A stretch of DNA of 64,000 nucleotides from Escherichia coli (GTDB lineage: Bacteria > Pseudomonadota > Gammaproteobacteria > Enterobacterales > Enterobacteriaceae): assembly GCF_044324785.1 (NCBI RefSeq), contig NZ_CP172127.1. The stretch is one strand, 5' to 3'. This document shows, in pieces, positions 313 through 64,000 of the stretch. The number at the start of each line of letters is the position of its first letter. Positions within the stretch are counted from its first letter, which is position 1. Made by a program: the position numbers and the translations under genes. The notes beneath the pieces were generated by a model, which saw only the letters and a program-made list of their open reading frames with translations, was not told the DNA's origin and did not search any database.

Positions 313-1446
313 TTAAACCGTCAGCACCACACAGCTGTCCACTTCCCAGCACAAACGCACTTCGTCGCCCCAGGTCGGTAACCCTTTACGATGACGATGG
401 GCGTTTTGTAGCTGGGCGCTAATCATCTGCCCACTTTTCAGACGAACGTGATACACCGAAAGATCGCCGAGATAGGCAATGTGTATCACCTCCCCCACCG
501 CGAAGTTACAACCATTGGCGGGCGGCTCTTCGCAAAGCATGATTTTTTCCGGACGCAGCGCTACGTGTACCGGCACGTTATCAACCACTGAAGCATCTGC
601 ATCGACTTTCAGTGGGTGCACCAGTCCCGGCGAATAAAGCACCAGACCATCTTCCTGACGCTCTTTGAGTACACCTTCAAAGACATTAACCGAACCGATA
701 AATTCAGCGCTATAGCGGGTGGTCGGATGCTCGTAGATCTCTTCCGGTTCGCCAATCTGGACAAATTTCCCACGATTCATAATGGCGATACGCCCCGCCA
801 TGGTCATCGCCTCTTCCTGATCGTGGGTGACCATCACACAAGTCACACCGACACGCTCCAGAATATCCACCACTTCAAGCTGCATCCGGTCACGCAGCTT
901 TTTATCCAGCGCGCCCATCGGCTCATCGAGCAGTAATAGTTTCGGGCGCTTGGCAAGGCTTCGGGCCAGTGCCACACGCTGTCGCTGACCACCGGAAAGC
1001 TGATGCGGTTTGCGTTTGGCGAACTCCTGCATATGCACCAGCCCGAGCATCTCATTGACCCGGCTGGCAATTTCCGCTTTCGGCAATTTGTCCTGTTTCA
1101 GGCCAAAAGCGATATTCTGTTCCACGGTCATATGCGGAAACAGCGCGTAAGACTGAAACATCATATTGATGGGGCGCAGGTAAGGCGGTACCTGTGACAA
1201 ATCGACGCCATCAAGCATTATCTGTCCGGCAGAAGGTTGTTCGAAACCTGCCAGCATACGCAGCAGCGTGGACTTGCCACAGCCGGATGCGCCCAGCAGC
1301 GCGAAGATTTCACCTTTGTAGATGGTCAGGCTGACATCATCCACCGCATGTTGACCATCGTAGGATTTGGTGAGGTTGCGGATTTCTAATAGCGGCGTCA
1401 GCGCCTTACGGGTTTTCGCCTGCGGGCGAGGGATAGCGTCATTCAC
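313..1446 (-). CDS. potG: Putrescine ABC transporter ATP-binding protein PotG (377 aa, GTG start)
   Basis: ORF 313..1527 contains Walker A GASGCGKST, LSGGQRQR signature and the PotG sequence from (V)NDAIPRPQAKTRK; start trimmed to the GTG that gives 377 aa. Confidence 0.92.
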   Translation of the reverse strand: MNDAIPRPQAKTRKALTPLLEIRNLTKSYDGQHAVDDVSLTIYKGEIFALLGASGCGKSTLLRMLAGFEQPSAGQIMLDGVDLSQVPPYLRPINMMFQSYALFPHMTVEQNIAFGLKQDKLPKAEIASRVNEMLGLVHMQEFAKRKPHQLSGGQRQRVALARSLAKRPKLLLLDEPMGALDKKLRDRMQLEVVDILERVGVTCVMVTHDQEEAMTMAGRIAIMNRGKFVQIGEPEEIYEHPTTRYSAEFIGSVNVFEGVLKERQEDGLVLYSPGLVHPLKVDADASVVDNVPVHVALRPEKIMLCEEPPANGCNFAVGEVIHIAYLGDLSVYHVRLKSGQMISAQLQNAHRHRKGLPTWGDEVRLCWEVDSCVVLTV

Positions 1447-1540: not shown

Positions 1541-2653
1541 TTATTTTCCGCTCTTCACTTTGGTCCACGCGCGGGTGCGCACACGGTCTATTTTTGGATC
1601 CTGCACTTTCAGAGTGAACAACTTCGCACGAACGTCCGCCGGAGGATAAATCCCTGGATTATCACGCACTTCCGCACTCACCAGCGGCGTAGCTTCTTTG
1701 TTCGCGTTGGCATAGAACACATGGTCGGAAATATGCGCCACCACATCCGGGCGCAGCAGGTAATTCAGGAACTGATAGGCTTCGTCTTTATTTTTGGCAT
1801 CCGCAGGCATGGCGAAGACATCAAAGAACGCCATCGCCCCTTCTTTCGGAATCGAGAACGAGACATTAACGCCATTCTTCGCTTCCTTCGCGCGGTTTGA
1901 CGCCTGCCAGACATCGCCTGCCCAGCCGATAGCGACGCAGATATCGCCGTTTGCCAGGTCGTTAATGTATTGCGATGAATGGAAATAACGAATGTTCGGA
2001 CGCAGCTTTAACAGCAGATCGGTAGCCGGTCCGGTGTAATCATCCGCTTTAGTGCTGTTGGGATCTTTGCCGAGATAATTCAGCACGGTAGCAAAAACTT
2101 CTTCCGGTGCATCAAGGAAAGAGACGCCGCAGCTTTTCAGTTTTTCCAGATTTTCAGGCTTGAGGATCAAGTCCCAGCTATCGACGGGCGCGTTTTCGCC
2201 CAGCACCGCTTTGACTTTATCGACGTTATAGCCAATCCCGGTTGTCGCCCACATATAGGGCATAGCAAATTTATTATCCGGGTCGTGTTTGGCAACCAAC
2301 TTCAGCAGTTCCGGGTCGAGATTCTTCCACTCCGGCAATTTGCTTTTATCCAGCGGCTGGAAAACTCCCGCAGTCAACTGGCGTTCAAGAAAGCTTGCTG
2401 ACGGCACCACCAGGTCAAAGCCGGTGCTACCCGCCATTAATTTGCCTTCCAGTACTTCGTTAGAGTCGAAAACATCGTAGACGACTTTAATACCGGTTTC
2501 TTTTTCAAAATTGGCCACCGTGTCCGGAGCGATATAATCAGACCAGTTATAAATGTGGAGTGTTTTTTGTTCAGCCGCGAGCGTGCCGACAGAGACGGCC
2601 ATCAGAGCACCCGCAACCAGACCCGATAGCCATTTTTTATTTAAGGCGGTCAT
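1541..2653 (-). CDS. potF: Putrescine-binding periplasmic protein PotF (370 aa)
   Basis: ORF translation from MTALNKKWLSGLVAGALMAVSVGTLA (signal peptide) matches PotF; ATG at 2651-2653 complement. Confidence 0.93.
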   Translation of the reverse strand: MTALNKKWLSGLVAGALMAVSVGTLAAEQKTLHIYNWSDYIAPDTVANFEKETGIKVVYDVFDSNEVLEGKLMAGSTGFDLVVPSASFLERQLTAGVFQPLDKSKLPEWKNLDPELLKLVAKHDPDNKFAMPYMWATTGIGYNVDKVKAVLGENAPVDSWDLILKPENLEKLKSCGVSFLDAPEEVFATVLNYLGKDPNSTKADDYTGPATDLLLKLRPNIRYFHSSQYINDLANGDICVAIGWAGDVWQASNRAKEAKNGVNVSFSIPKEGAMAFFDVFAMPADAKNKDEAYQFLNYLLRPDVVAHISDHVFYANANKEATPLVSAEVRDNPGIYPPADVRAKLFTLKVQDPKIDRVRTRAWTKVKSGK

Positions 2654-2949
2654 ATCTCTTTCCTTCTGAAAGTTCGTTAACAAACGAACAAAAGTTGTCA
2701 CACTGAAAGATATGCAATAAACGTGCATATTTTTTATCGGCGCGGTGTAAGAAAAGAGAACTCTCTCCCGGCCAGCACTGCTCGCTATATAAAAGCATCG
2801 CAAGAATAACTTTAGCCAGGGTTTGAGACTATAGCTCGGATTAAAAAACGGTATTTAACAAATTTTTATGCGTATTTGCTCTATGTGATAAAGCCAAATC
2901 GGCACAAGAGAAGTGAAATAATCTTTAAGAAAAGGTTAAAAACAGCAGA

Positions 2950-2990
2950 TAATTTTGCAGCACGCAGTCACTGCGGCAGCGACTGCGTAC
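2950..2990 (-). terminator. Stem-loop downstream of ybjN (acgcagtcactgc / gcagcgactgcgt)
   Basis: Inverted repeat seen directly in the sequence just 3' of the ybjN stop on the minus strand. Confidence 0.4.
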
Positions 2991-3003
2991 TCGAAAGGAG
3001 TTA

Positions 3004-13702: not shown

Positions 13703-14461
13703 ATGGAAACACGTCGCGAAGAGCGTATCGGGCAGCTGCTGCAAGAATTAAAACGCAGCGATAAGTTACATCTTAAAGACGCCGCCGCCCTGCTTGGGGT
13801 TTCGGAGATGACGATTCGTCGCGATCTGAACAACCACAGTGCGCCCGTCGTTTTGCTCGGCGGCTATATTGTTCTGGAACCACGCAGCGCCAGCCATTAC
13901 CTGTTAAGCGATCAAAAATCCCGCCTGGTGGAAGAAAAACGCCGGGCGGCAAAACTGGCTGCGACGCTGGTAGAACCCGATCAGACCCTCTTTTTTGACT
14001 GTGGCACCACCACACCGTGGATTATTGAAGCGATTGATAATGAAATCCCTTTTACCGCCGTTTGTTATTCGCTAAATACCTTTCTGGCGCTGAAAGAGAA
14101 ACCCCATTGCCGCGCGTTTCTTTGCGGTGGTGAATTTCACGCCAGCAACGCCATTTTCAAACCCATCGATTTTCAGCAAACGCTGAATAATTTTTGCCCG
14201 GATATCGCTTTTTATTCCGCTGCGGGCGTGCATGTCAGTAAGGGCGCTACCTGTTTTAATCTTGAAGAGTTGCCGGTAAAACACTGGGCCATGTCGATGG
14301 CGCAAAAGCATGTGCTGGTTGTCGACCACAGTAAATTTGGCAAGGTGCGTCCGGCGCGCATGGGTGACCTGAAACGCTTTGATATTATGGTGAGCGATTG
14401 TTGCCCGGAAGATGAATATGTGAAGTACGCGCAGACGCAGCGTATTAAGTTGATGTATTAA
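13703..14461 (+). CDS. deoR: Deoxyribose operon repressor DeoR (252 aa)
   Basis: METRREERIGQLLQELKRSDKLHLKDAAALLGVSEMTIRRDL... HTH-containing DeoR-family protein matching DeoR. Confidence 0.92.
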   Translation: METRREERIGQLLQELKRSDKLHLKDAAALLGVSEMTIRRDLNNHSAPVVLLGGYIVLEPRSASHYLLSDQKSRLVEEKRRAAKLAATLVEPDQTLFFDCGTTTPWIIEAIDNEIPFTAVCYSLNTFLALKEKPHCRAFLCGGEFHASNAIFKPIDFQQTLNNFCPDIAFYSAAGVHVSKGATCFNLEELPVKHWAMSMAQKHVLVVDHSKFGKVRPARMGDLKRFDIMVSDCCPEDEYVKYAQTQRIKLMY

Positions 14462-19773: not shown

Positions 19774-21102
19774 TTACTGCCAGCTAATCTGAGCCCTGCC
19801 GTTTTTCTTACTCTTATACAACCGCTCATCCGCCAGCATTTTCAAGCGTTCGACGGTAGGACATTCATTTGAATGCGCTACACCGATACTGGTGCTTAAA
19901 TTAATGCTTCCCACCTGGAAATGAACGATTTCTTTTAGAATCGATAGCAACTCTTCCAGCGTTCCACCCGTATAAATCACCGCAAATTCGTCACCGCCGA
20001 AGCGGTAGACTTTACCTTTATCTACCGGGATCTGTGATTTAAGGATTTTCACCACTTTCATCAACACTTCATCGCCCAGCAAATGACCGAAGGTGTCGTT
20101 GATGTTTTTGAATTTATCGACGTCAAACAGGCACAAATAACCGCCTTTTTCCGGTAGCGCTTTTAAATCTTCGTCAAAGGATTTTCTGCCCATCGCTTTG
20201 GTCAGGTCGTCCAGGAACGCCGAGTTATACATACTGTAGAGTTTTTTGACATCGGCAGCTGAAAAGAAAAGCCCGCCATCCAGTACGCGTTCAAAATGGT
20301 TATTAATAATGGCTTCTTTCTCCACAATACCACGATTAATCACTCTGCGTACCAGATAGAGGCAACTGGCACCCGATATCACAGCCACCAATGCGGCAAA
20401 GAAAATAATCAACGTACAAACCCGCAAATAAACATCTTTTTTATACGCAAATACGTACAATCCGGTCGGCAAATAGGAGAAGTGCTCCATCGCTTCCGAA
20501 ACGGTGAAGATGGCGTTTTTAGCATTATATTCATCACCGGTCACCGGTTTACCGTTCTTAAACAGAGAGAACATCAGGTTCTCGCTATCCATCGCCAGTG
20601 ATTTTGACAGTAAAGAAAAACGCTCCAGACCAAGCAAAAATATCAGACTGCGATTGTGGGTTACCGGATAGAGGTAATAGACGAAGGTTTTACCGTCAAA
20701 AGAGATAAACCCTGTATTTTTGACATGTCGATACTTCACAACCTGCATAATATCTGCACAATAATTTTTCTCGAACTCCTTTACCTGAATACATTCGTCA
20801 CTGAAAATCAGATAAGGACCGACATCGTACAAATAAGAGGGTGAAACCGAGTCGGCGTAAGCTGTGCGCAAACCAACCAACAGCTGTTCCTCCGTGGGGT
20901 TTAGCGTGTTGATGAGATCAATTGCCACGCTACGCCGATATTCAGCAATATTTGCCACCGCAAAAGCAGTATCAATAACGGACTGTTTCAGGCCATACAC
21001 CCGTTCCTTTACCATTTGAGTGTAGATCCCGCAGGCAACTGCTGAAATCATGATAAAAATCAGCAGACTGACTGTAAGTACGAACTTATTGATTCTGGAC
21101 AT
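19774..21102 (-). CDS. dgcI: Diguanylate cyclase DgcI (YliF), 442 aa, periplasmic sensor domain plus GGDEF
   Basis: [30 protein letters not shown]...; C-terminal GGDEF domain (RFGGDEF); 7 bp downstream of pdeI. Confidence 0.9.
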
Positions 21103-21109
21103 ACGTAAA

Positions 21110-23458
21110 CTACTCTTTTACTAATTTTCCACTTTTATCCCAGGCGGAGAATGGCATGGGTTTCTGGTACAGATACCCCTGAGCCTGAACACATCCTAAT
21201 TTGATTAATTCGCGCGCAACGTCTTCGCTCTCTACGCCTTCCGCAATCACCGGGATCCGGTTATAGCGTGCCAGATCGAAAATAATGCGCACAATTTTTC
21301 CCGCAGTACCGAAAATATCGCCGGTAAATTGCGAGTCCACTTTTATGCTATCTGGATTAATTTCATAAAAACGTTTCAGGTTTGACAAACCGGTGCCAAA
21401 GTCATCAATCGATATCCGTACCCCTTGTTTACGCAGTTGTTCAATATTGAGATAAAAATGTTCATTAATTCGCTCGATCACGGTTTCAGTGATCTCAACA
21501 CAGAGGCTGTTCGCCTTCAGGCCATTTTCTTTCATGATGGTGGTAAAACGCTCATGAAAGTGCGGTTCGTTTAACTGCCAGGGCGAAACATTAATATGCA
21601 GTAAGAAATCATCCTTCAGCGATGCACGCTGACTAAAATGTCTGAATTCACCCATTGCCGTTTTAATAATCTGATAACCCAGCTCATTGATAAACCCGAT
21701 ATCTTCAGCAATGGTAATGAACTTCAGCGGTGAAATGATCCCCCGCTCCGCAGACACCCAACGGCACAACGCCTCCGCGCCCAGAATGGTGCGGGTGTTA
21801 ATATCAACGATCGGCTGATAGACCAGGAATAGTTCGCCAATTTCCATTGCATGGCGAATATTACGCGCAATCCAGATATTCTCTTCTATTTCGTTGAGTT
21901 TCGCGTCATCACAGAAAATAAACTCGGAGAACATATGATCACGGATACTGGAAATCGCCAGTTTCAGTTTTTCTGCGTAACTCCAGGCGTTTTCTCCCTG
22001 CAAAGGTTCACAAATGGCAGACTTATGGATGCGCAGATTGCGGTAGCCAAAGCTGCTGTCAAAATCGTTTACCATCGCTATTTTACGGGTAAATGTCTGT
22101 ACATTTTCCCGGCACAGAAGTAAATAGAGATCGGCATTAAATGTCACGATATCGCAGCATTGCGCATATTTCTCGGCAATTCGCTGACACAATTTCCTGA
22201 CGATTTTATTGCGTTCATCAACACCAAACACCGCTTCCACGGCTTCCAGACCACACAGTTTGATGATCCCCACAGCCAGATACTGATTATTGTTGGACTC
22301 AATAATCGCCATATTTTTAATAAAACCGCTTTCCTGATCGTAAGAGATCAGTGAGAGCAATTTATTTGACCGTTCAATTTCGGCATCTTTCATTTCCGCG
22401 ATCGAATTTTTGATGCTGATAATCTCTTTCGCATCGCCTTCGCGAATTTTCAGAGCCTCGATTTGATCCGTTGAGTCAGGCAAAAACGCCAGCGTATTAA
22501 CCAGCTCTGTCATTTCAGAAAATTGCCGACGGAACACACGAGTGGTCATTAAATAAACCACCAGCAATACGATAATAATGAAAGCAAACGGCAGATAAAA
22601 AAGTTTATCTGATGCGTTCAATAAATTACCACCAGGATAATAAAAATAGATTTCGAATAATGCGTTGTTTGGCACCGCTGATGTTTTTTCGATATATTCA
22701 GTATCGACAGAATCAATAATATTATAATTACCTTCGCTATTATAAATAATTAGTTTTTCACGAGCGAGTTGATTCTTGGCAATGATCTCATGGCCTTGTT
22801 TTAAAAATAGAACTTCATCATTAGCGCTGATTTGATCAAGATACTAGTTCAGATATCGCCAGTTTAAATCGACATGAATTTTATCCACCGCTAACAAATC
22901 GTGATCTTTGCCGTTGATGTGTAGCGTAAAAGAGATACATTTTTTACCCGGACGATCAAAGCAATTGTATGCCGGATTCCAGCTGTTGTTAGAGTCATCT
23001 GAAGCCATCGACCACGGTCGTTTCGATGGGTTAAAATCGGCAAAAATAACCCGCCCTGACTCGTCGACAAGCGGTCCATTTACTTGTTCCTGATGATAAA
23101 CAACGATTTTATCATTCGCCCTCCGCGAAAAAAGATAATATTTATTATCATCAAGTACCAGTCCCACCGAGTCTAAAAATGGCATCATTTCCATTTTAAG
23201 AATCACGGCGCGTTGAATCTCCTCTGTATTTTTTAATAAATACAGTGAGTCCTTTAATGTCAGGGCCGAACGTTCAATATCTTTAAAGAAATAGCCAACG
23301 TTTTTCTGAATAAGTTCAAAGCGGCTATCGGCACGTTTTACCGCGCGCTCCGATACCAGTTGATAGTTAATGATGAAAAAAAGACCAATAAATGACAGTG
23401 CTGCCAATAAAAATAAAATTATCAGCCTTATCTTTATCTTTTCGTATAAACTCAGCAT
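21110..23458 (-). pseudogene. pdeI: c-di-GMP phosphodiesterase PdeI (YliE, 782 codons) interrupted by an in-frame TAG at codon 205 (complement of 22844-22846)
   Basis: ORFs 22844..23536 and 21110..22675 are in the same frame and separated only by one amber codon (coding strand ...CTG AAC TAG TAT CTT...); read through, the length is exactly 782 codons from MLSLYEKIKIRL, matching intact PdeI; the EAL domain lies entirely downstream of the stop. Confidence 0.75.
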
Positions 23459-23635
23459 GTTAATACATTTAACAAAATAACTATCTGAACGCTGTGCCGC
23501 TGCAAAAATTGTCCCTTGCTGCGGCTTTTTAACCAAATTACCCGATTCTACAAAATCAGCAGAAAGTTACAACACTTGCTTAGGGCAATAATTTCCTGTG
23601 AGGTGATTACCCTTTCAAGCAATATTCAAACGTAA

Positions 23636-24547
23636 CTATCCTTTAATTTTCGGATCCAGCGCATCGCGTAAACCATCGCCCAACAAATTGAACGCCAGTA
23701 CGGTCAGAAAAATAGCCAGGGTCGGAAAAACAGCGACATGCGGCGCGATAACCATATCCGCTCGTGCCTCATTGAGCATTGCTCCCCACTCTGGTGTCGG
23801 CGGCTGCGCACCGAGGCCGAGAAATGACAGGCTGGCGGCAGAGATAATCGAGGTGCCGATGCGCATGGTGAAAAACACCACGATAGAAGAGACGGTCCCA
23901 GGCAAGATATGACGCAATAAAATGGTCATATCGCTGGCACCAATACTGCGTGCTGACTCAATAAAGGTTTGCTGTTTCAACACCAGCGTGTTGCCGCGCA
24001 CCAGGCGGGCAAACGCGGGGATGGAAAAAATGGCGACAGCGATAATCACGTTAGCAATGCCGCTTCCCAACACCGCAACAACAGCGATCGCCAGTAAAAT
24101 ACCCGGGAAGGCAAACAGCACATCGCAAATGCGCATGATTAGCCGATCTGACCAGCCTTCATAATATCCAGCAAGCAAGCCCAGCAACGTCCCGATCGCC
24201 GCACCGATAAACACGGCAAACACACCCGCCGCCAGTGAGATTTGCGCACCAACCAGGACACGGCTGAAAATGTCACGCCCGAGTGAATCGACGCCAAACC
24301 AGTGCTGCAAAGAAGGTCCGTTATTCAGATTGTCATAATCGAAATAATTTTCGGCGTCATAGGGAGCGATCCAGCGTGCAAAAATGGCCACTACAATCAA
24401 TAAAATAACGAATAATGCGGCGGTCATCGCCATATGCTGACGGCGAAATCGTCGCCAGAATTCATGCCACGGTGTACGTACCTGGTCAGGTTTGACCAGT
24501 GGCATGGCGTTTAACACCGCCTGACGTCGCCAGTTAAATAGTCGCAT
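23636..24547 (-). CDS. gsiD: Glutathione ABC transporter permease GsiD (303 aa)
   Basis: ABC permease matching GsiD (YliD); operon position after gsiC. Confidence 0.9.
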
Positions 24548-37386: not shown

Positions 37387-38652
37387 ATGGCTTCTACTTT
37401 TACCAGCGACACATTGCCTGCCGATCACAAAGCAGCTATCCGTCAGATGAAGCACGCGCTGCGGGCGCAGCTTGGCGACGTCCAGCAGATCTTTAATCAG
37501 CTAAGCGATGACATTGCCACGCGAGTGGCTGAAATCAACGCACTCAAAGCACAGGGCGATGCCGTCTGGCCGGTGCTGTCTTATGCCGATATCAAAGCAG
37601 GTCATGTTACTGCAGAGCAGCGCGAACAAATTAAACGTCGCGGTTGTGCGGTGATAAAAGGCCATTTCCCCCGCGAACAAGCGCTAGGCTGGGATCAGTC
37701 GATGCTGGACTATCTGGACCGCAACCGCTTTGACGAGGTCTACAAAGGCCCCGGCGATAATTTCTTCGGGACACTCAGCGCTTCACGTCCCGAGATTTAC
37801 CCCATCTACTGGTCGCAGGCGCAAATGCAGGCCCGCCAGAGTGAAGAAATGGCGAATGTGCAGTCGTTTCTCAATCGTCTGTGGACATTTGAAAGTGATG
37901 GAAAGCAATGGTTTAACCCGGATGTGAGCGTCATCTACCCTGACCGTATCCGCCGCCGTCCGCCCGGAACGACCTCCAAAGGTCTTGGAGCGCATACCGA
38001 CTCCGGGGCGCTGGAACGCTGGCTGCTTCCAGCGTATCAGCACGTTTTCGCCAACGTCTTTAATGGCAATCTGGCGAAATACGATCCCTGGCATGCGGCA
38101 CATCGTACGGAAGTTGAAGAGTACACGGTGGACAACACCACCAAATGTTCCGTGTTTCGGACATTCCAGGGCTGGACAGCGCTCTCTGATATGCTGCCTG
38201 GTCAGGGGTTGCTGCACGTCGTGCCCATTCCTGAAGCCATGGCGTACGTACTGTTACGTCCGCTGCTTGATGATGTGCCGGAGGATGAACTGTGCGGCGT
38301 AGCGCCCGGAAGAGTGTTGCCGGTATCAGAGCAATGGCATCCACTGTTAATTGAGGCGTTAACCAGCATTCCAAAACTCGAGGCCGGAGACTCCGTCTGG
38401 TGGCACTGCGACGTCATCCATTCCGTTGCCCCCGTTGAAAATCAACAGGGTTGGGGCAACGTGATGTACATTCCTGCGGCACCGATGTGCGAGAAAAATC
38501 TTGCCTACGCGCACAAGGTGAAGGCCGCACTGGAAAAAGGCGCATCGCCGGGCGACTTCCCGCGCGAGGACTATGAAACAAACTGGGAAGGACGCTTTAC
38601 GCTTGCCGACCTCAACATTCACGGTAAGCGAGCGTTGGGAATCGACAGCTGA
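37387..38652 (+). CDS. ybiU: YbiU, DUF1479 protein (2OG-oxygenase-like), 421 aa
   Basis: ORF from MASTFTSDTLPADHKAAIRQMKHALRAQL... matches YbiU. Confidence 0.85.
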   Translation: MASTFTSDTLPADHKAAIRQMKHALRAQLGDVQQIFNQLSDDIATRVAEINALKAQGDAVWPVLSYADIKAGHVTAEQREQIKRRGCAVIKGHFPREQALGWDQSMLDYLDRNRFDEVYKGPGDNFFGTLSASRPEIYPIYWSQAQMQARQSEEMANVQSFLNRLWTFESDGKQWFNPDVSVIYPDRIRRRPPGTTSKGLGAHTDSGALERWLLPAYQHVFANVFNGNLAKYDPWHAAHRTEVEEYTVDNTTKCSVFRTFQGWTALSDMLPGQGLLHVVPIPEAMAYVLLRPLLDDVPEDELCGVAPGRVLPVSEQWHPLLIEALTSIPKLEAGDSVWWHCDVIHSVAPVENQQGWGNVMYIPAAPMCEKNLAYAHKVKAALEKGASPGDFPREDYETNWEGRFTLADLNIHGKRALGIDS

Positions 38653-39722
38653 GTGTCGTACAGCCCTTCCCGTTCCACGGCGGTGTTCCCTTTTCCTGGG
38701 CGAACCCGCCGCACTGACTCCCGCACCGCCAATCGTCCGTGCAGCAGCAGCGAGCCCACCGGAGCATCCGGGCGAATCAGCCGCTGTTGCAACATTTGCA
38801 CCGCTTCATTGCCTAGCTCATCGCGTGGCACATGCACAGCCGTCAGGGGAACATCCTCGATTGCCGCAAGGTTAAAGCCGTCGATACTCATCACCGAGAC
38901 ATCCTGTGGTACGCGCAGACCACGACGATGTAGCGCATTTACCGTTCCCGCCGCCATAAAATCCCCGCCGACCAGAAACGCCGTCGGCAACGTCTTGCCA
39001 TTGGCGGCATCCAGCCACGCTCCGACCTTTTCTTCCGCTTCTTTAGCGCTAAAACTGCTGATATTCAGCAAATGACGGTCATGGTGAAAGGCCAGATTAT
39101 GCTGACGCCATGATTCTTTAATCCCTGCAAACCGCTGCTCCATAGTGTAGCGGCGCAGGCACATCACATTCATCACCTCCCGGTGACCCATTTCAAACAG
39201 ATAGCGGGCGGCGAACGCGCCAATTAACCGATGGTCCGGCGCAATCGCCGGGAGGCGCATTCGTTCATCACGGCAGTTGATCAGCACACAAGGCTTAGCG
39301 AGATCGGCGGCCAGATCATGGATGTGCGGATCGTCAATCCCCAGCAGGATCGCCGCCTGCGTATCTGCTTCATTCATCCGCGAGAGAAATAGCGCGGGAT
39401 CGCTGTCAAACTCCTCCAGCGCGCAGTAACGCAGCCGCACTTCATGCGGCGATAACGCTTTGCTGATGCTCTGGATCACACGGTAATAAAAGATATCAGA
39501 TCGTTGGTCAAAAGCGCGTTGCGGCGCGAAAATAATCAGGTTGTTCAGCAACATACGACCTGCTGCCATGCCATCCATCACGCCCAACTCACGCGCGCAG
39601 GCCAGCACCTGTTCGCGAGCGCGTGCACTGGTATTCGCTTTGCCAGCCAGCACCCGCGAAACCGTACTCGGCGATAGCCCGGTACGTGCGGCGATATCGG
39701 CGATTTTCAGCTTCTTGTCCAT
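38619..39722 (-). CDS. LacI-family transcriptional regulator (accessory, not in K-12 at this position), about 367 aa with an unusually long C-terminal tail
   Basis: MDKKLKIADIAARTGLSPSTVSRVLAGKANTSARAREQVLACARELGV... is a LacI-type HTH followed by a periplasmic-binding-protein-like sugar domain; its 3' end overlaps the ybiU 3' end by 34 nt. Confidence 0.7.
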   Translation of the reverse strand: MDKKLKIADIAARTGLSPSTVSRVLAGKANTSARAREQVLACARELGVMDGMAAGRMLLNNLIIFAPQRAFDQRSDIFYYRVIQSISKALSPHEVRLRYCALEEFDSDPALFLSRMNEADTQAAILLGIDDPHIHDLAADLAKPCVLINCRDERMRLPAIAPDHRLIGAFAARYLFEMGHREVMNVMCLRRYTMEQRFAGIKESWRQHNLAFHHDRHLLNISSFSAKEAEEKVGAWLDAANGKTLPTAFLVGGDFMAAGTVNALHRRGLRVPQDVSVMSIDGFNLAAIEDVPLTAVHVPRDELGNEAVQMLQQRLIRPDAPVGSLLLHGRLAVRESVRRVRPGKGNTAVEREGLYDTQLSIPNARLP

Positions 39723-40016
39723 TTTGTGATCTGCCTCTAATTCGGAAATGACAGAATTTTCATGAGCAAAAAAGCCCATTCTGTCTGGCATTAAATCCAT
39801 TTCAGTAATGTATATCAGTCACTCATGGAAAAACGTGCACAAAACCCGCTTTCTTTCGCTTTTAGGGTCTCTTACTGTGAATTGGTAGAACAACTTCCAT
39901 ACAAAAATAATGGAAAAACGAACAACAAAGACTTTATTTATCAAAAAGTTAAAAGTGGTGTGACAACTCCATTCTGACGTTGCCGCACAAACCCTATACC
40001 ATTCTGTGGAGTGCAT
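39723..40016. promoter_or_regulatory. Divergent control region between the LacI-family regulator and the MFS-GH31 genes
   Basis: 294-bp AT-rich, ORF-free intergenic region between divergently oriented genes; position inferred, no operator identified. Confidence 0.4.
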
Positions 40017-41318
40017 ATGAGTCAGGGTATCAATAACGATATGACTGCCAGTAAACCGCGCCATATCGTCAAAAATCTGCGTTGGTGGATACTGGTCCTT
40101 TTTTTGCTCGGTGTTACTGTCAACTACATCACGCGTAACTCGCTGGGTATTCTCGCCCCCGAACTGAAAAGCAGCCTGGGGATTACCACCGAACAATATT
40201 CCTGGATTGTAGGTGCTTTCCAGCTCGCCTATACCCTATTCCAACCGTTGTGCGGATGGCTGATTGACGTCATTGGCCTCAAACTGGGCTTTATGATCTG
40301 CGCGGGACTGTGGGCACTGGCCTGTCTGATGCATGCGGGGGCGGGAAACTGGGTACATCTGGCGCTGTTGCGCTTCTTTATGGGCGGTGCGGAAGCCGCA
40401 GCAACCCCAGCAAACGCCAAAACCATCGGTGAATGGTTTCCAAAATCAGAACGCCCGATCGCCGCAGGCTGGGCAGGCGTCGGTTTTTCCATCGGTGCCA
40501 TGCTGGCCCCACCGATTATCTATTTTGCCCACGCTTCATTCGGCTGGCAGGGTGCATTTATGTTCACTGGCATCCTGGCGATGCTGTGGGTCGTGCTGTG
40601 GTGGGCGTTCTATCACAGCCCGGATAAGCATCCTAACCTCAGCAAAGCCGAGCTGGACTTTATTCGCCAGGATAACGAAGCGCCCCCGGTCAAGTTACCC
40701 TTTCTGACCGCACTGAAAACCGTGGGCAAAAATAAACGCTTTTACGGTATCGCTATCCCGGCCTTTATGGCAGAACCGGCGTGGGCGGTGATGAGTTTCT
40801 GGGTTCCGCTATACCTGTCCAAAACCTATGGCATGGACCTGAAGCAGATCGCATTATTCGCCTGGTTGCCGTTCCTCGCCGCTGATCTTGGCAGTATTGC
40901 CAGCGGCTATCTGACCAAACTTTACACCCGCCTGTTTGGGCTGAGTCGTGTGAACTCCGTTGTCGCATCATCGGTCAGTGGCGCATTCCTGATGGTTTCG
41001 CTGGCGGTGATGGCCTTTACCAATAACCCGTATATCGCCATCGTCCTTATCTCCATCGGCGGCTTCGGTCACCAGATCATCTCCTGCATGCTAAGCGCAC
41101 TGGTGGTGGAATCCTTCGACAAAGGTCAGATGGCCACTGTTAACGGCATGCGCGGTTCTGCCGCGTGGATCGCAAGTTTCCTGTTCTCCCTGATAATCGG
41201 GGTTACCGCAGACAAAATCGGCTTTAACCCCCTGTTTATCGCCATGGGCTTCTTTGACCTGATTGGCGCTTTCTTCCTGGTCACCTTTATTGCTGAACGT
41301 CGCGCAAAACGCGCCTGA
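40017..41318 (+). CDS. MFS transporter resembling the anion:cation symporter family (ExuT/GudP/DgoT-like), about 433 aa
   Basis: 12-TM ORF with N-terminal sequence ...NYITRNSLGILAPELKSSLGITTEQYSWIVGAFQLAYTLFQP typical of ACS-family transporters; RBS ggag 6 nt before the ATG at 40017. Confidence 0.7.
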   Translation: MSQGINNDMTASKPRHIVKNLRWWILVLFLLGVTVNYITRNSLGILAPELKSSLGITTEQYSWIVGAFQLAYTLFQPLCGWLIDVIGLKLGFMICAGLWALACLMHAGAGNWVHLALLRFFMGGAEAAATPANAKTIGEWFPKSERPIAAGWAGVGFSIGAMLAPPIIYFAHASFGWQGAFMFTGILAMLWVVLWWAFYHSPDKHPNLSKAELDFIRQDNEAPPVKLPFLTALKTVGKNKRFYGIAIPAFMAEPAWAVMSFWVPLYLSKTYGMDLKQIALFAWLPFLAADLGSIASGYLTKLYTRLFGLSRVNSVVASSVSGAFLMVSLAVMAFTNNPYIAIVLISIGGFGHQIISCMLSALVVESFDKGQMATVNGMRGSAAWIASFLFSLIIGVTADKIGFNPLFIAMGFFDLIGAFFLVTFIAERRAKRA

Positions 41319-41332
41319 GAGTGGATGTAAAC

Positions 41333-43696
41333 ATGAAAACGCTGAAAAACTGGACCCTGCACAAACAGTCTGCCCACCACGTTGAACTGCTGGTCGATGG
41401 CCAGCATATCCTGTGCCTGTACGTGCTGGAAGAAAATCTGTTCCGCGTGCTGTTAAAACGCAAAGGCGAGCTGGCGCTGGATCGCACCTGGAGCATTGCT
41501 CCGGCGCAGGATGTGCCATGGGAAGGGCGCAGCCGCGAAGATCTCAGCGGCTTTAGCCTGCCCGCGTGGACATTGATCCAGCACGACGACACCGTGGTTA
41601 TCGCCACCGAGTCACTGCGTGTCACCGTTCACCAGCCGCTGTGGCTGGAGTGGCACTATCGTAACAACGAAGGCGAATGGCTGCCGTTGGTGAATGACCG
41701 CCCGACCAGCGCTTATCTGCTGAATGCCCACGGCGATGGCGTGGCACACTATCAGAGCCGTCGTAAAGATGAACGCTTTTATGGCCTCGGAGATAAAGCC
41801 GGCGACCTGCAACGCAACGGTAAACGTTACGAGATGCGTAACCTCGACGCGATGGGCTACAACGCCGTTAGTACTGACCCGCTGTACAAACACATTCCAT
41901 TCACCATCACCCGCCGCGATGACATTAGCTTCGGCCTGTTTTATGACAACCTCAGCAGCTGCTGGCTGGATCTGGGCAACGAGATCGACAACTACCACAC
42001 CGCCTATCGCCGCTGGCAGGCGGAAGCGGGTGATATCGACTACTACCTGTTTACCGGCGAACGCGTACTTGATATCACCAAAGCCTTCGTACGCCTGACC
42101 GGAAAAACCCTGTTCGGACCGAAATGGAGCCTGGGCTACAGCGGTTCAACTATGCACTACACCGATGCGCCGGACGCACAAAATCAGTTGATGAACTTTA
42201 TCCGCCTGTGTGAAGAACATGCAATTCCCTGCGATTCGTTCCAGCTCTCTTCCGGTTATACCTCAATTAACGGCAAACGCTATGTGTTCAACTGGAACTA
42301 CGACAAAGTGCCGCAGCCGAAAGTGATGAGCCAGGCATTTCACAATGCTGGTTTGCACCTGGCCGCCAATATCAAGCCGTGCCTGTTGCAGGATCACCCA
42401 CGCTATAACGAAGTGGCAGAAAGAGGACTGTTCATCCGTGATTCAGAAACAGATGAACCAGAACGTTCCAGCTTCTGGGATGACGAAGGTTCTAACCTCG
42501 ACTTTACTAATCCGCAGACCATCCAGTGGTGGCAGGAAGGCGTGACCACACAGCTTCTGGAGATGGGTATCGACTCCACCTGGAACGACAACAACGAATT
42601 CGAAGTATGGGACGGTGAAGCACGCTGTCACGGCTTTGGTCAGACGATCGCGATCAAACATATTCGCCCAGTGATGCCACTGCTGATGATGCGAGCCTCG
42701 ATGGAAGCCCAGCAGCGTTTCGCTCCGGAAAAACGTCCGTACTTGATCTCCCGCTCCGGCTGCGCGGGAATGCAGCGCTACGTGCAGACCTGGAGTGGCG
42801 ATAACCGCACTAGCTGGGACACTCTGCGCTACAACACCCGCATGGGTCTGGGGATGAGCCTCTCCGGGTTGTATAACCTCGGTCACGACGTCGGCGGTTT
42901 CTCCGGTGATAAACCGGACCCGGAACTGTTTGTACGCTGGGTACAAAACGGCGTGATGCATCCGCGCTTTACGATTCACTCATGGAACGATGACCATACC
43001 GTAAACGAACCGTGGATGTATCCGGGCGTCACTCCGGCGATCCGCAGCGCTATTGAGTTGCGCTATCGCCTGCTGCCCTACTTTTATACCCTGATGTGGC
43101 AGGCATACGCCGATGATGAACCAATGCTACGTCCGACTTTCCTTGACCACGAGCACGACGTTCAGACTTTTGAAGAGTGTGATGACTTCCTGCTTGGTCG
43201 CGATATTTTGGTTGCCAGCGTCGTAGAGCAAGGCGAGCGCCAGCGCCGTGTATGGCTGCCAGATAACGAAACTGGCTGGTACGATTTCTACAACGGCGAA
43301 TGGTTCAGTGGCGGTCAGTGGATCACCCTCGACGCACCGCTGGAGAAACTGCCGCTGATGGTGCGTGCCGGGGCTGGTCTACCGCTCAGCAAACGCATCA
43401 CCTATGTGAGCGCAGAACAAGACGATACCCGCGAACTGAAACTGTTCCCGCTGAAAGGTGTGGGCACAACGTCCGGCCTGCTGTTTGAAGACGATGGCGA
43501 AAGCTGGGGCTACCAAACTGGTAATGCGCTTTGGGTGGAATGGGAAATGGTTTGCGATGGGGCGACCATCAACCTGAAAGTCAACGCGCGCGGGGATTAT
43601 CGTCCTGCATGGAGTGCACTGAAAGTGTCATTACCATTGGAAGAAAAACGCACGCTGCTGGTCAATGGTGTTGAAGGGAGTGAATGGATGCGTTAA
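41333..43696 (+). CDS. Glycoside hydrolase family 31 alpha-glycosidase (about 787 aa)
   Basis: Carries GH31 hallmark motifs: TWNDNNEF (catalytic nucleophile region), RSGCAGMQRY...WSGDN (acid/base region), GHDVGGF; tightly linked (2-14 bp) downstream of the transporter. Confidence 0.75.
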   Translation: MKTLKNWTLHKQSAHHVELLVDGQHILCLYVLEENLFRVLLKRKGELALDRTWSIAPAQDVPWEGRSREDLSGFSLPAWTLIQHDDTVVIATESLRVTVHQPLWLEWHYRNNEGEWLPLVNDRPTSAYLLNAHGDGVAHYQSRRKDERFYGLGDKAGDLQRNGKRYEMRNLDAMGYNAVSTDPLYKHIPFTITRRDDISFGLFYDNLSSCWLDLGNEIDNYHTAYRRWQAEAGDIDYYLFTGERVLDITKAFVRLTGKTLFGPKWSLGYSGSTMHYTDAPDAQNQLMNFIRLCEEHAIPCDSFQLSSGYTSINGKRYVFNWNYDKVPQPKVMSQAFHNAGLHLAANIKPCLLQDHPRYNEVAERGLFIRDSETDEPERSSFWDDEGSNLDFTNPQTIQWWQEGVTTQLLEMGIDSTWNDNNEFEVWDGEARCHGFGQTIAIKHIRPVMPLLMMRASMEAQQRFAPEKRPYLISRSGCAGMQRYVQTWSGDNRTSWDTLRYNTRMGLGMSLSGLYNLGHDVGGFSGDKPDPELFVRWVQNGVMHPRFTIHSWNDDHTVNEPWMYPGVTPAIRSAIELRYRLLPYFYTLMWQAYADDEPMLRPTFLDHEHDVQTFEECDDFLLGRDILVASVVEQGERQRRVWLPDNETGWYDFYNGEWFSGGQWITLDAPLEKLPLMVRAGAGLPLSKRITYVSAEQDDTRELKLFPLKGVGTTSGLLFEDDGESWGYQTGNALWVEWEMVCDGATINLKVNARGDYRPAWSALKVSLPLEEKRTLLVNGVEGSEWMR

Positions 43697-43875
43697 ATCA
43701 TTACCGGGGCCGGGAGGCGACTGCACCTTACCCGGTCCAGCCATCGAATCCTTTACCTCAGTATTTCACGCTGCAGGAAGGCAGCAAACCTGTAAACCCC
43801 GGGAGCTTAAATAAGTAAGTGACCGGGGTGAACAGGTGAAGCCAATGCATCTGCCGCATGAAAGACGGCGGGGAA

Positions 43876-45471
43876 TTAACCGTCGATCCCTTTACTACGC
43901 AGGTAATCTTCGTAATTACCGCTAAAGTCAATAACGCGTTCCGGGGTGATTTCCAGAATGCGGGTCGCCAGGGAGCTTACGAACTCACGGTCGTGTGAAA
44001 CAAAGATCAGCGTGCCCTGATACAGTTCCAGCGCCATGTTCAGCGACTCGATGGATTCCATATCCAGGTGGTTGGTCGGTTCGTCCATGATCAGAATGTT
44101 CGGCTTCTGCATCATTAACTTACCAAACAGCATCCGCCCTTTTTCCCCACCGGAAAGCACTTTCGCTGGTTTTTTGATGTCGTCCTGGCTGAACAGCAAA
44201 CGACCGAGAATGCTGCGTACCGCCTGCTCGTCATCGCCTTCCTGCTTCCACTGGCTCATCCATTCGAACACGGTCAGATCATTTTCAAACTCATATTCGT
44301 GGTCCTGAGCATAGTAACCAATGCGCGCGTTTTCAGACCATTTTACGGTGCCGCTGTCCGGTTGCAGATCGCCCACCAGCGTTTTCAGCAGCGTTGATTT
44401 ACCGACGCCGTTGGTACCCAGTACCGCAAGTTTTTCACCGACCTCCAGCAGCAGGTTGAGATTTTTAAACAGTGGACCGTTATCAAACCCTTTGGTCAGA
44501 CCTTCCACTTCCAGCGCGTTACGGAACAGTTTCTTATCCTGTTCAAAACGGATGAACGGGTTCTGACGGCTGGAGGCTTTCACCTCTTCCAGTTTGATTT
44601 TATCAATCTGGCGCGCGCGCGAAGTTGCCTGGCGAGATTTCGAGGCGTTGGCGCTAAAGCGGCTAACGAAAGATTGCAGCTCAGCAATCTGCGCTTTCTT
44701 CTTGGCGTTATCAGCCAGCAGACGTTCACGCGCCTGGGTCGCCGCCGTCATGTACTCATCGTAGTTGCCCGGATAAACGCGCAGCTCGCCGTAATCCAGA
44801 TCCGCCATATGGGTACAAACCATGTTAAGGAAGTGACGGTCGTGCGAGATGATGATCATGGTGCTGTCACGCTCGTTCAGCACCTGTTCCAGCCAACGAA
44901 TGGTGTCGATGTCGAGGTTGTTGGTCGGTTCGTCGAGCAGGAGAATGTCTGGATCAGCAAAAAGCGCCTGTGCCAGCAGCACACGCAGCTTCCAGCCAGG
45001 AGCAACTTCACTCATCGGGCCGTAGTGCTGTTCCACTGGAATTCCCACGCCAAGCAACAATTCACCGGCGCGAGCTTCCGCAGAGTAACCGTCCATTTCG
45101 CCGTATTTCACTTCCAGATCGGCCACTTTATAGCCGTCTTCTTCACTCATTTCCGGCAAAGCATAGATGCGGTCACGCTCCTGCTTCACTTCCCACAACT
45201 CTTTATGCCCCATGATCACCGTATCCAGCACAGTGAACTCTTCAAAGGCAAACTGATCCTGACGCAGCTTACCAATGCGCTCGTTGGGATCGAGGGAAAC
45301 GTTACCCAACGTCGGCTCTAAGTCGCCGCCGAGGATCTTCATAAAGGTGGATTTACCACTACCGTTCGCGCCAATCAGGCCGTAACGGTTGCCGCCGCCA
45401 AATTTGACGGAAATGTTTTCAAACAACGGCTTACTGCCGAACTGCATGGTGACGTTACTGGAAACTAACAC
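43876..45471 (-). CDS. ybiT: ABC-F family ATPase YbiT (tandem ABC domains), about 530 aa, GTG start
   Basis: (M)[41 protein letters not shown]... two ABC cassettes without a TM domain; matches YbiT. Confidence 0.9.
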
Positions 45472-59757: not shown

Positions 59758-62040
59758 ATGGAAAACAATCGCAATTTCCCTGCCAGACAATTTCATTCGC
59801 TCACGTTCTTTGCCGGTCTTTGTATTGGCATCACGCCTGTGGCTCAGGCACTCGCCGCCGAAGGGCAAGCAAACGCGGATGACACGCTGGTTGTCGAAGC
59901 ATCAACGCCTTCGCTTTATGCGCCACAACAATCTGCTGATCCGAAATTCTCGCGTCCGGTAGCGGATACTACCCGCACGATGACGGTGATTTCTGAACAA
60001 GTGATTAAAGATCAGGGCGCAACCAACCTTACCGACGCGCTCAAAAACGTCCCCGGCGTGGGTGCGTTTTTTGCGGGTGAGAACGGTAACTCCACCACTG
60101 GCGACGCCATTTATATGCGTGGTGCCGATACCTCTAACAGTATTTATATTGATGGCATTCGCGATATCGGCAGCGTCTCGCGCGACACCTTCAATACCGA
60201 GCAGGTCGAAGTGATTAAAGGGCCGTCCGGCACCGACTACGGGCGCAGCGCACCGACGGGCTCGATCAATATGATCAGCAAGCAGCCGCGCAATGACTCA
60301 GGCATTGACGCCTCCGCGAGTATTGGCAGCGCCTGGTTCCGCCGCGGCACGCTGGACGTCAATCAGGTCATTGGTGATACCACTGCGGTGCGCCTGAATG
60401 TGATGGGTGAAAAAACGCACGATGCCGGACGCGACAAAGTCAAAAATGAGCGTTACGGCGTCGCCCCTTCTGTCGCTTTTGGCCTTGGCACAGCGAATCG
60501 TTTGTATCTTAATTATCTACATGTCACCCAGCACAACACGCCAGACGGCGGCATTCCGACCATCGGTTTGCCGGGCTATTCTGCCCCATCTGCGGGAGCG
60601 GCGGCCCTGAATCATTCCGGAAAAGTAGATACGCATAACTTTTATGGCACGGATTCCGATTACGACGATTCGACCACCGATACCGCTACCATGCGTTTTG
60701 AGCACGATATCAACGATAACACCACCATTCGCAATACTACCCGTTGGTCGCGCGTGAAGCAGGATTACCTGATGACGGCGATTATGGGCGGGGCGTCGAA
60801 TATTACCCAGCCCACCAGCGATGTGAATAGCTGGACCTGGTCACGCACGGCGAATACTAAAGATGTGAGTAATAAAATTCTCACCAACCAGACCAACCTG
60901 ACCTCGACGTTCTATACCGGTTCTATCGGTCATGATGTCAGTACCGGCGTGGAATTTACCCGTGAAACGCAGACTAACTACGGCGTTAATCCGGTGACGT
61001 TACCTGCGGTAAATATTTATCATCCTGACAGCAGCATTCATCCCGGCGGCCTGACGCGCAACGGCGCAAACGCCAATGGTCAGACGGATACCTTCGCAAT
61101 TTACGCTTTCGATACGCTGCAAATCACCCGTGATTTTGAGCTGAACGGCGGGATCCGTCTGGATAATTATCATACTGAATATGACAGTGCCACCGCCTGC
61201 GGCGGCAGCGGACGCGGTGCCATCACCTGCCCTGCTGGCGTGGCAAAAGGTTCTCCGGTCACCACCGTCGATACCGCCAAGTCGGGCAATCTGGTGAACT
61301 GGAAAGCCGGGGCGCTGTATCACCTGACGGAAAACGGCAATGTCTATATTAACTATGCTGTTTCCCAGCAGCCTCCGGGCGGCAACAACTTCGCCCTTGC
61401 GCAGTCTGGCAGCGGTAACAGTGCCAACCGCACCGATTTTAAACCGCAAAAAGCCAACACCAGCGAGATTGGCACCAAATGGCAGGTTCTGGATAAACGC
61501 CTGTTGCTCACCGCCGCGCTGTTCCGTACTGATATCGAAAATGAAGTTGAGCAAAATGATGACGGAACTTACTCGCAATACGGTAAGAAACGCGTCGAAG
61601 GCTATGAGATATCCGTGGCCGGGAATATCACTCCCGCGTGGCAGGTGATTGGCGGCTATACCCAGCAAAAAGCAACCATCAAAAACGGCAAAGATGTTGC
61701 CCAGGATGGTTCCTCATCGCTGCCGTATACCCCGGAGCACGCCTTTACCTTATGGAGCCAGTATCAGGCAACCGATGATATTTCCGTTGGTGCGGGCGCA
61801 CGCTATATCGGCAGTATGCATAAAGGTTCTGACGGCGCGGTGGGAACGCCAGCGTTTACCGAAGGTTATTGGGTCGCCGACGCTAAACTGGGGTATCGGG
61901 TTAATCGCAATCTCGACTTCCAGCTAAACGTCTACAACCTGTTTGATACCGATTACGTCGCCTCAATCAACAAGAGCGGCTACCGTTATCACCCGGGCGA
62001 GCCAAGAACCTTCCTGCTCACGGCCAATATGCATTTCTGA
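59758..62040 (+). CDS. fiu: TonB-dependent catecholate siderophore receptor Fiu (760 aa)
   Basis: Signal peptide, plug domain and beta-barrel ending ...[11 protein letters not shown] (C-terminal aromatic residue) match Fiu. Confidence 0.9.
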
Positions 62041-63765: not shown

Positions 63766-64000
63766 GCACAGAAAACCCCCAGCTAGGCTGGGGGTTCCGG
63801 AAAGCTTTCAGCTTTGAGCCAGTTATTAAAACCCCTTTTGATTTGTTAAAACACCTTGCGGTCTGGCAACTGCAAGTGTCAAACAAGAAATCAAAAGGGG
63901 GTCCCAATGGGGGACGAAAAGAGCTTAGCGCACACCCGCTGGAACTGTAAATATCACATAGTTTTTGCGCCGAAATACCGAAGACTGGCGTTTTACGGAG
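63766..64000 (+). mobile_element. Left end of an IS200 insertion sequence (IS200/IS605 family), truncated by the window end
   Basis: Two hairpins characteristic of the IS200 left end (cccccagctaggctggggg, then a stem sequestering the RBS: ccccttttgatttgtt...aacaagaaatcaaaaggggg) followed by the tnpA start; IS200 is absent from K-12 as far as I recall. Confidence 0.75.
63907..64000 (+). CDS. tnpA: IS200 transposase TnpA (HUH Y1 transposase), N-terminal 31 codons only
   Basis: Translation MGDEKSLAHTRWNCKYHIVFAPKYRRLAFYG matches the conserved IS200 TnpA N-terminus. Confidence 0.8.
   Translation, partial: MGDEKSLAHTRWNCKYHIVFAPKYRRLAFYG

Follow-up and report, generated by a model that had tools for sequence, protein, structure and literature searches.

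Stop codons and frameshifts that interrupt genes of the c-di-GMP network are well known from natural E. coli strains (Cimdins et al. 2017, PMC5635171; Povolotsky & Hengge 2016, as cited there). In the urosepsis strain B-11870, a TGG codon of yciR (pdeR) is changed to TAG, and the same codon reads TGA in EHEC O111:H- 11128. Other examples are stop codons in yliF (dgcI) and in the phosphodiesterase gene yddV/dosP, and a C-terminal stop in yjcC (PMC5635171). In Shigella, nonsense or frameshift mutations have made pseudogenes of six phosphodiesterase genes (PMC13320778). A premature stop in bcsQ is fixed in the K-12 lineage, where the phenotype is the absence of cellulose (Serra et al. 2013, as cited in PMC5635171).

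The pdeI (yliE) allele described here, E205*, lies in a 64-kb stretch of E. coli DNA that was analysed as a whole (the window), and is a new example of this class. Like the other strain-specific nonsense alleles of c-di-GMP genes, it arises from one base change in a multi-domain GGDEF/EAL gene, is found in a natural isolate, leaves an N-terminal sensor fragment, and is lineage-restricted. It differs from the yciR alleles in the gene and the position affected, and also in extent: no output domain survives the pdeI stop, but truncated YciR still has an active GGDEF domain and was associated with an altered phenotype (PMC5635171). The likeness to Shigella lies in the loss of an EAL-domain gene by nonsense mutation within the E. 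coli/Shigella complex. Loss of phosphodiesterases in Shigella, however, is lineage-fixed and part of genome-wide reductive evolution, whereas the 55 neighbours of pdeI are intact and sister genomes keep the gene. As in bcsQ of K-12, one early stop interrupts the leading gene of a tightly packed pair or operon of the biofilm/c-di-GMP network, but here the allele is confined to a single isolate.

The locus is orthologous to PdeI, a membrane protein with CHASE9, divergent GGDEF and EAL domains, and the allele is a pseudogene. Orthology is indicated by position, by a colinear frame, by a CHASE9 domain between two transmembrane segments, and by a C-terminal EAL domain with its motifs; the one expected feature that fails is an uninterrupted coding sequence. 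The gene order gsiD–pdeI–dgcI–rimO is the same in K-12, N3, 19KM1831 and the window. In K-12 MG1655 the gene (b0833) has 2,349 nucleotides and aligns to pdeI of the window without a gap. The two copies differ at 24 nucleotides, 21 of the differences being synonymous and three non-synonymous (V151M, A557T and E205*). This preponderance of synonymous changes, together with the intact EAL motifs, points to purifying selection on pdeI until recently.

Pfam recognizes both the CHASE9 core (E=2.3e-62) and the EAL domain (E=2.5e-69) in the pdeI product, and hydropathy marks two transmembrane segments. An NCBIfam model for GepA-type GGDEF-EAL proteins aligns to residues 377–774, an extent that fits the known divergent GGDEF domain of PdeI. 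All of the EAL catalytic motifs are present downstream of the stop (EALCR562, NVSP623, EITE655, DDFGTG685, EGVE740 and QG760). A search of solved structures found none matching the periplasmic region of PdeI. Coordinates of these and other features are collected in the table.

Table. Features of the pdeI–dgcI locus, in window coordinates
Feature	Position	Strand	Description
pdeI (yliE) frame	21110..23458	(-)	782 codons plus terminal TAG, colinear with K-12 b0833; now a pseudogene through one internal stop
Amber codon 205 (TAG)	22844..22846	(-)	Ancestral codon GAG (Glu), seen by comparison with K-12 and relatives
N-terminal fragment, 204 aa	22847..23458	(-)	Translated; TM1, CHASE9 core and 54 further periplasmic residues
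TM1, residues ~12-30	23369-23425	(-)	Hydropathy
CHASE9 core, residues 35-150	23009-23356	(-)	Pfam
Codons 206-782	21110..22843	(-)	Beyond reach of the native start; periplasmic remainder, TM2, divergent GGDEF, EAL
TM2, residues ~286-304	22547-22603	(-)	Hydropathy
Divergent GGDEF region, residues ~377-510		(-)	NCBIfam GGDEF-EAL match
EAL domain, residues 532-767	21158-21865	(-)	Pfam; catalytic motifs intact
TTG, codon 280	22619..22621	(-)	Hypothetical internal start; GGUGG upstream, anti-SD duplex -6.2 kcal/mol; would give TM2 and cytoplasmic domains
ATG, codon 304	22547..22549	(-)	Hypothetical internal start; GGUGG upstream, anti-SD duplex -5.6 kcal/mol; would give soluble GGDEF*-EAL
Sigma-70-like match TTGTAA-16-TAGAAT	23545..23572	(-)	Possible promoter, upstream of pdeI
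dgcI (yliF)	19774..21102	(-)	Intact, 442 aa, GGDEF motif at residue 369; 100% nucleotide identity to N3 dgcI

Translated on the minus strand, the pdeI frame comprises 782 codons before its terminal stop, and codon 205 is the only stop within it. The original prediction, made from the sequence alone, was that a single in-frame amber breaks the gene into two open reading frames (22844..23536 and 21110..22675), and this description is borne out. The two share one frame (23536 − 22675 = 861 = 3 × 287), no stop besides the TAG lies between them, and reading through gives the length of intact PdeI, 782 sense positions when codon 205 is counted. K-12, which had been expected to be uninterrupted at this point, indeed has the sense codon GAG there, as does every close relative compared. 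The surrounding DNA reads ...TGG CGA TAT CTG AAC TAG TAT CTT GAT..., and the change is a G>T substitution on the coding strand (pdeI nucleotide 613), or C>A at plus-strand position 22846. The predicted placement of the stop requires some correction. It does precede TM2 and the EAL domain, but it does not follow the whole periplasmic sensor region: it falls inside the periplasmic stretch, past the CHASE9 core only, and 80 residues ahead of TM2. At window positions 22842–22847 the same substitution generates a CTAG tetranucleotide and a recognition site for SpeI (ACGAGT>ACTAGT).

The explanation best suited to these observations, with a probability of roughly 0.85, is a genuine and very recent loss-of-function nonsense mutation in pdeI, private to one isolate. 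In a single isolate or clone of E. coli, one G>T transversion would have replaced the Glu codon GAG at position 205 by TAG. Translation begun at the native ATG would then stop after residue 204, probably with high efficiency; UAG followed by U, the context found here, is reportedly an efficient terminator. The released product would be a membrane-anchored fragment that lacks an output domain and is presumably functionless. Neither TM2 nor the divergent GGDEF domain would be made, nor the EAL domain with its intact catalytic motifs, so that the full-length sensor enzyme would be lost; barring suppression or internal initiation, the output domains should be absent. The gene thus has the appearance of a newly formed pseudogene in which no further damage has yet accumulated.

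Native expression of pdeI may be low in any case. The gene is AT-rich (41% GC, compared with 51% for the window), and its ATG has no detectable Shine-Dalgarno match (window 23459–23478; duplex energy +0.9 kcal/mol); these two properties suggest weak expression. A promoter and terminator scan, in which the sigma-70-like match upstream of pdeI was one candidate, gave no excess over shuffled background (9 sites found, 9.1 expected).

The distribution of the allele bears directly on its age. The reference set comprised 5,426 RefSeq complete E. coli genomes, exclusive of the window's own genome, and 5,365 of these contain the region. A 75-mer spanning the TAG has an exact match in none of the 5,365, the best hits all being one base off. 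The best match among the 5,426 is strain N3 (99.3% identity over 24 kb), and in the nearest complete genomes, 19KM1831, N3 and elppa4, plus-strand position 22846 is C, which corresponds to GAG. Searches with the TAG allele pattern likewise gave no exact match in GTDB representative genomes or in JGI metagenomes.

The Glu205 version of exactly the window's protein occurs as an intact 782-residue protein on 167 public contigs. Four sister contigs, from four different samples (L019, L020, L022 and L023; sources GCA_044095485.1, ERZ28577173, GCA_028598205.1 and GCA_044689585.1), were taken from part of this group. Identity of these contigs to the window is 99.93–99.98% across as much as 22.3 kb, and all four have GAG at codon 205. 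In L020, L022 and L023, nucleotide 613 (G, where the window has T) is the sole difference in pdeI. A multiple alignment with the four sisters leaves only two substitutions private to the window in 22.3 kb, the amber at 22846 and a change at 23722. With so few private changes, and with GAG retained in the sisters, the amber mutation lies at the very tip of the tree, and the lineage as a whole retains intact pdeI. An allele common to the lineage, which the original prediction had left as a question, is excluded by the GAG codons of the four sisters and by the lack of matches in RefSeq complete, GTDB and JGI sequences. What is found is a single-base difference from an intact allele in near-identical sisters, the pattern of a recent nonsense pseudogene.

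The second private substitution lies 876 bp from the amber; a G>A change in the coding strand, it replaces Ala276 of GsiD by Thr (A276T). Both of the window-private changes thus alter protein sequence.

Genome decay of the Shigella kind was considered by mapping N3 genes onto the window, and is excluded: the 55 other conserved genes are intact relative to N3, and pdeI alone has an internal stop. Some accessory features do vary among these genomes. A 5.2-kb islet at 38640–43882, between ybiU and ybiT, carries genes for a LacI-family regulator (38619–39800, minus strand), an MFS transporter of the D-galactonate-transporter family (40011–41318), and a glycoside hydrolase family 31 alpha-glucosidase/xylosidase (41321–43696). 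N3 has IS621 in place of the islet, which occurs at this site in 577 of the 5,426 complete E. coli genomes. The catecholate siderophore receptor gene fiu (59758–62040) is intact in the window, at 760 aa, and is interrupted by IS4 in N3, the closest complete genome. The window ends (63907–64000) partway through an IS200/IS605 tnpA, which has the same sequence in N3. In another E. coli lineage (L021, GCA_017776915.1, positions 13755–14460), genes for a RelE-family toxin and an HTH antitoxin lie between dgcI and rimO; the window does not have this pair.

It is possible to suppose that the isolate is truly GAG and that the T arose by an error of sequencing, polishing or assembly, an alternative that the original prediction had raised. 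The G>T change is typical of oxidative-damage artefacts, all of the sister genomes have G, and the carriers of the TAG allele amount to about three public contigs, which may all represent one isolate. The 204-residue N-terminal and 521-residue C-terminal products are nevertheless both on record in a public protein collection, and among the contigs listed one, ERR13187251_52 (84.7 kb), has both of them in the arrangement seen in the window. This contig belongs to a separate, k-mer-based Logan assembly made directly from sequencing run ERR13187251, and across 8,615 nucleotides it matches the window at 100% identity, TAG included, although the run may derive from the same isolate, and even from the same reads, as the window's assembly. 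A k-mer contig would be expected to break at an unresolved variant. Furthermore, the change is a substitution rather than a homopolymer indel, and the 55 other genes of the window contain no frameshift or stop, which argues for a consensus of high quality. An error is therefore unlikely.

Public matches to the 204-residue fragment give a misleading impression of how widely the allele is shared. The exact fragment matches 22 public contigs, but of the ten places listed, nine (L007–L015) are contigs that end inside codon 205. Where bases remain past the cut at the contig end, they are the wild-type G or GA. These contigs also belong to a different lineage, with about 98.3% identity in eight and 99.5% in the ninth (L008). 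They are partial proteins at contig ends, an artefact of exact lookup, and not carriers of the allele. Another apparent carrier, in a metagenome-assembled E. coli (L017, GCA_964261755.1, contig CAXVQW010064420.1, positions 2268–3000), has GAG at codon 205 and is rejected as well. Its lesion is of another kind, a 19-bp tandem duplication in the TM1 region together with a 1-bp insertion near codon 218, and its 521-residue C-terminal open reading frame is identical to that of the window. This disruption of pdeI may be genuine and of independent origin, or it may be an error of assembly.

A second alternative accepts the stop but supposes that the split gene still functions, through internal initiation at TTG280 or ATG304, or through amber suppression or read-through that restores some full-length PdeI. 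Each of the two candidate starts is preceded by a Shine-Dalgarno-like GGUGG with favorable pairing, whereas the native ATG has no such element, and the downstream frame is intact along with every EAL catalytic motif. An intact downstream frame, however, is to be expected in any case after so recent a mutation, and Shine-Dalgarno-like pentamers are common by chance. Both candidate starts lie 225–300 nucleotides beyond the stop, too far for termination-reinitiation. The 64-kb window contains no tRNA gene, and hence no suppressor tRNA; amber suppressors are rare in natural isolates, and the UAG-U context would itself favor termination. A programmed read-through or recoding site is excluded, for the stop is conserved in no relative: none of the 5,365 complete genomes has it, and the sisters and K-12 have GAG. 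Residual function thus seems decidedly improbable.

A particular form of this idea is a two-piece system, in which the membrane-bound CHASE9 fragment would coexist with an internally initiated GGDEF*-EAL protein freed from periplasmic sensor control. Such a system is conceivable but very improbable. If it were real, the outcome would be constitutive c-di-GMP turnover, possibly adaptive, rather than a simple loss of function, with consequences such as altered biofilm or persister formation or altered susceptibility to phage N4.

Deliberate engineering of a knockout is scarcely credible. The ACTAGT context, in which one change yields an amber codon together with a SpeI site, is directly observed; once a TAG is present, the flanking AC and T that the site requires would occur by chance in about 1 case in 64. 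But no scar or marker is present, nor any other sign of engineering. The lineage is wild-type, its natural sisters occur among isolate assemblies as well as metagenome assemblies, and the second private substitution nearby in gsiD is consistent with ordinary accumulation of mutations. The SpeI site is probably a coincidence.

If pdeI has been inactivated by a recent nonsense mutation, the effect on its neighbor must also be considered. The prediction that dgcI is intact holds. Its start lies 7 nucleotides after the pdeI stop, and the two genes are probably co-transcribed. The early stop would leave 1.7 kb of untranslated RNA ahead of dgcI, and Rho-dependent polarity could result; the bcsQ stop of K-12 is said to be polar on its downstream genes. 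For dgcI, polarity is only an inference, and the RNA downstream of the amber is G-rich rather than C-rich, with 533 G and 435 C and a C/G ratio of at least 1.3 in only 6 of 295 windows. Strong Rho-dependent polarity is therefore poorly supported, and polarity on dgcI may be regarded as a minor possibility.

The original prediction also held that the c-di-GMP balance could shift, the phosphodiesterase being lost beside an intact cyclase. The published evidence on the net activity of PdeI is conflicting. Overexpression of pdeI, like that of five other phosphodiesterases, confers resistance to phage N4, which suggests that the protein degrades c-di-GMP (PMC7553319, discussed in PMC8669469). On the other hand, overexpression has been found to raise c-di-GMP about 11-fold, an increase for which G412 of the divergent GGDEF domain is required, and PdeI marks a persister-prone subpopulation of biofilm cells (eLife 2024, PMC11651652). 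Because of this conflict, the direction in which c-di-GMP would change upon loss of PdeI cannot be predicted. E. coli has about 13 EAL proteins; since PdeI is only one among these, a modest and condition-specific effect of its loss is expected.

The mutation would have little significance beyond this one strain. For annotation, the locus should be marked as one pseudogene and not as two genes, a 204-residue CHASE9 protein and a 521-residue EAL protein, as gene callers split it. If the allele is real, the isolate is a natural pdeI knockout that stands beside near-isogenic sisters in which the gene is intact, and comparison of the TAG isolate with its GAG sisters could help to settle whether PdeI lowers or raises c-di-GMP.
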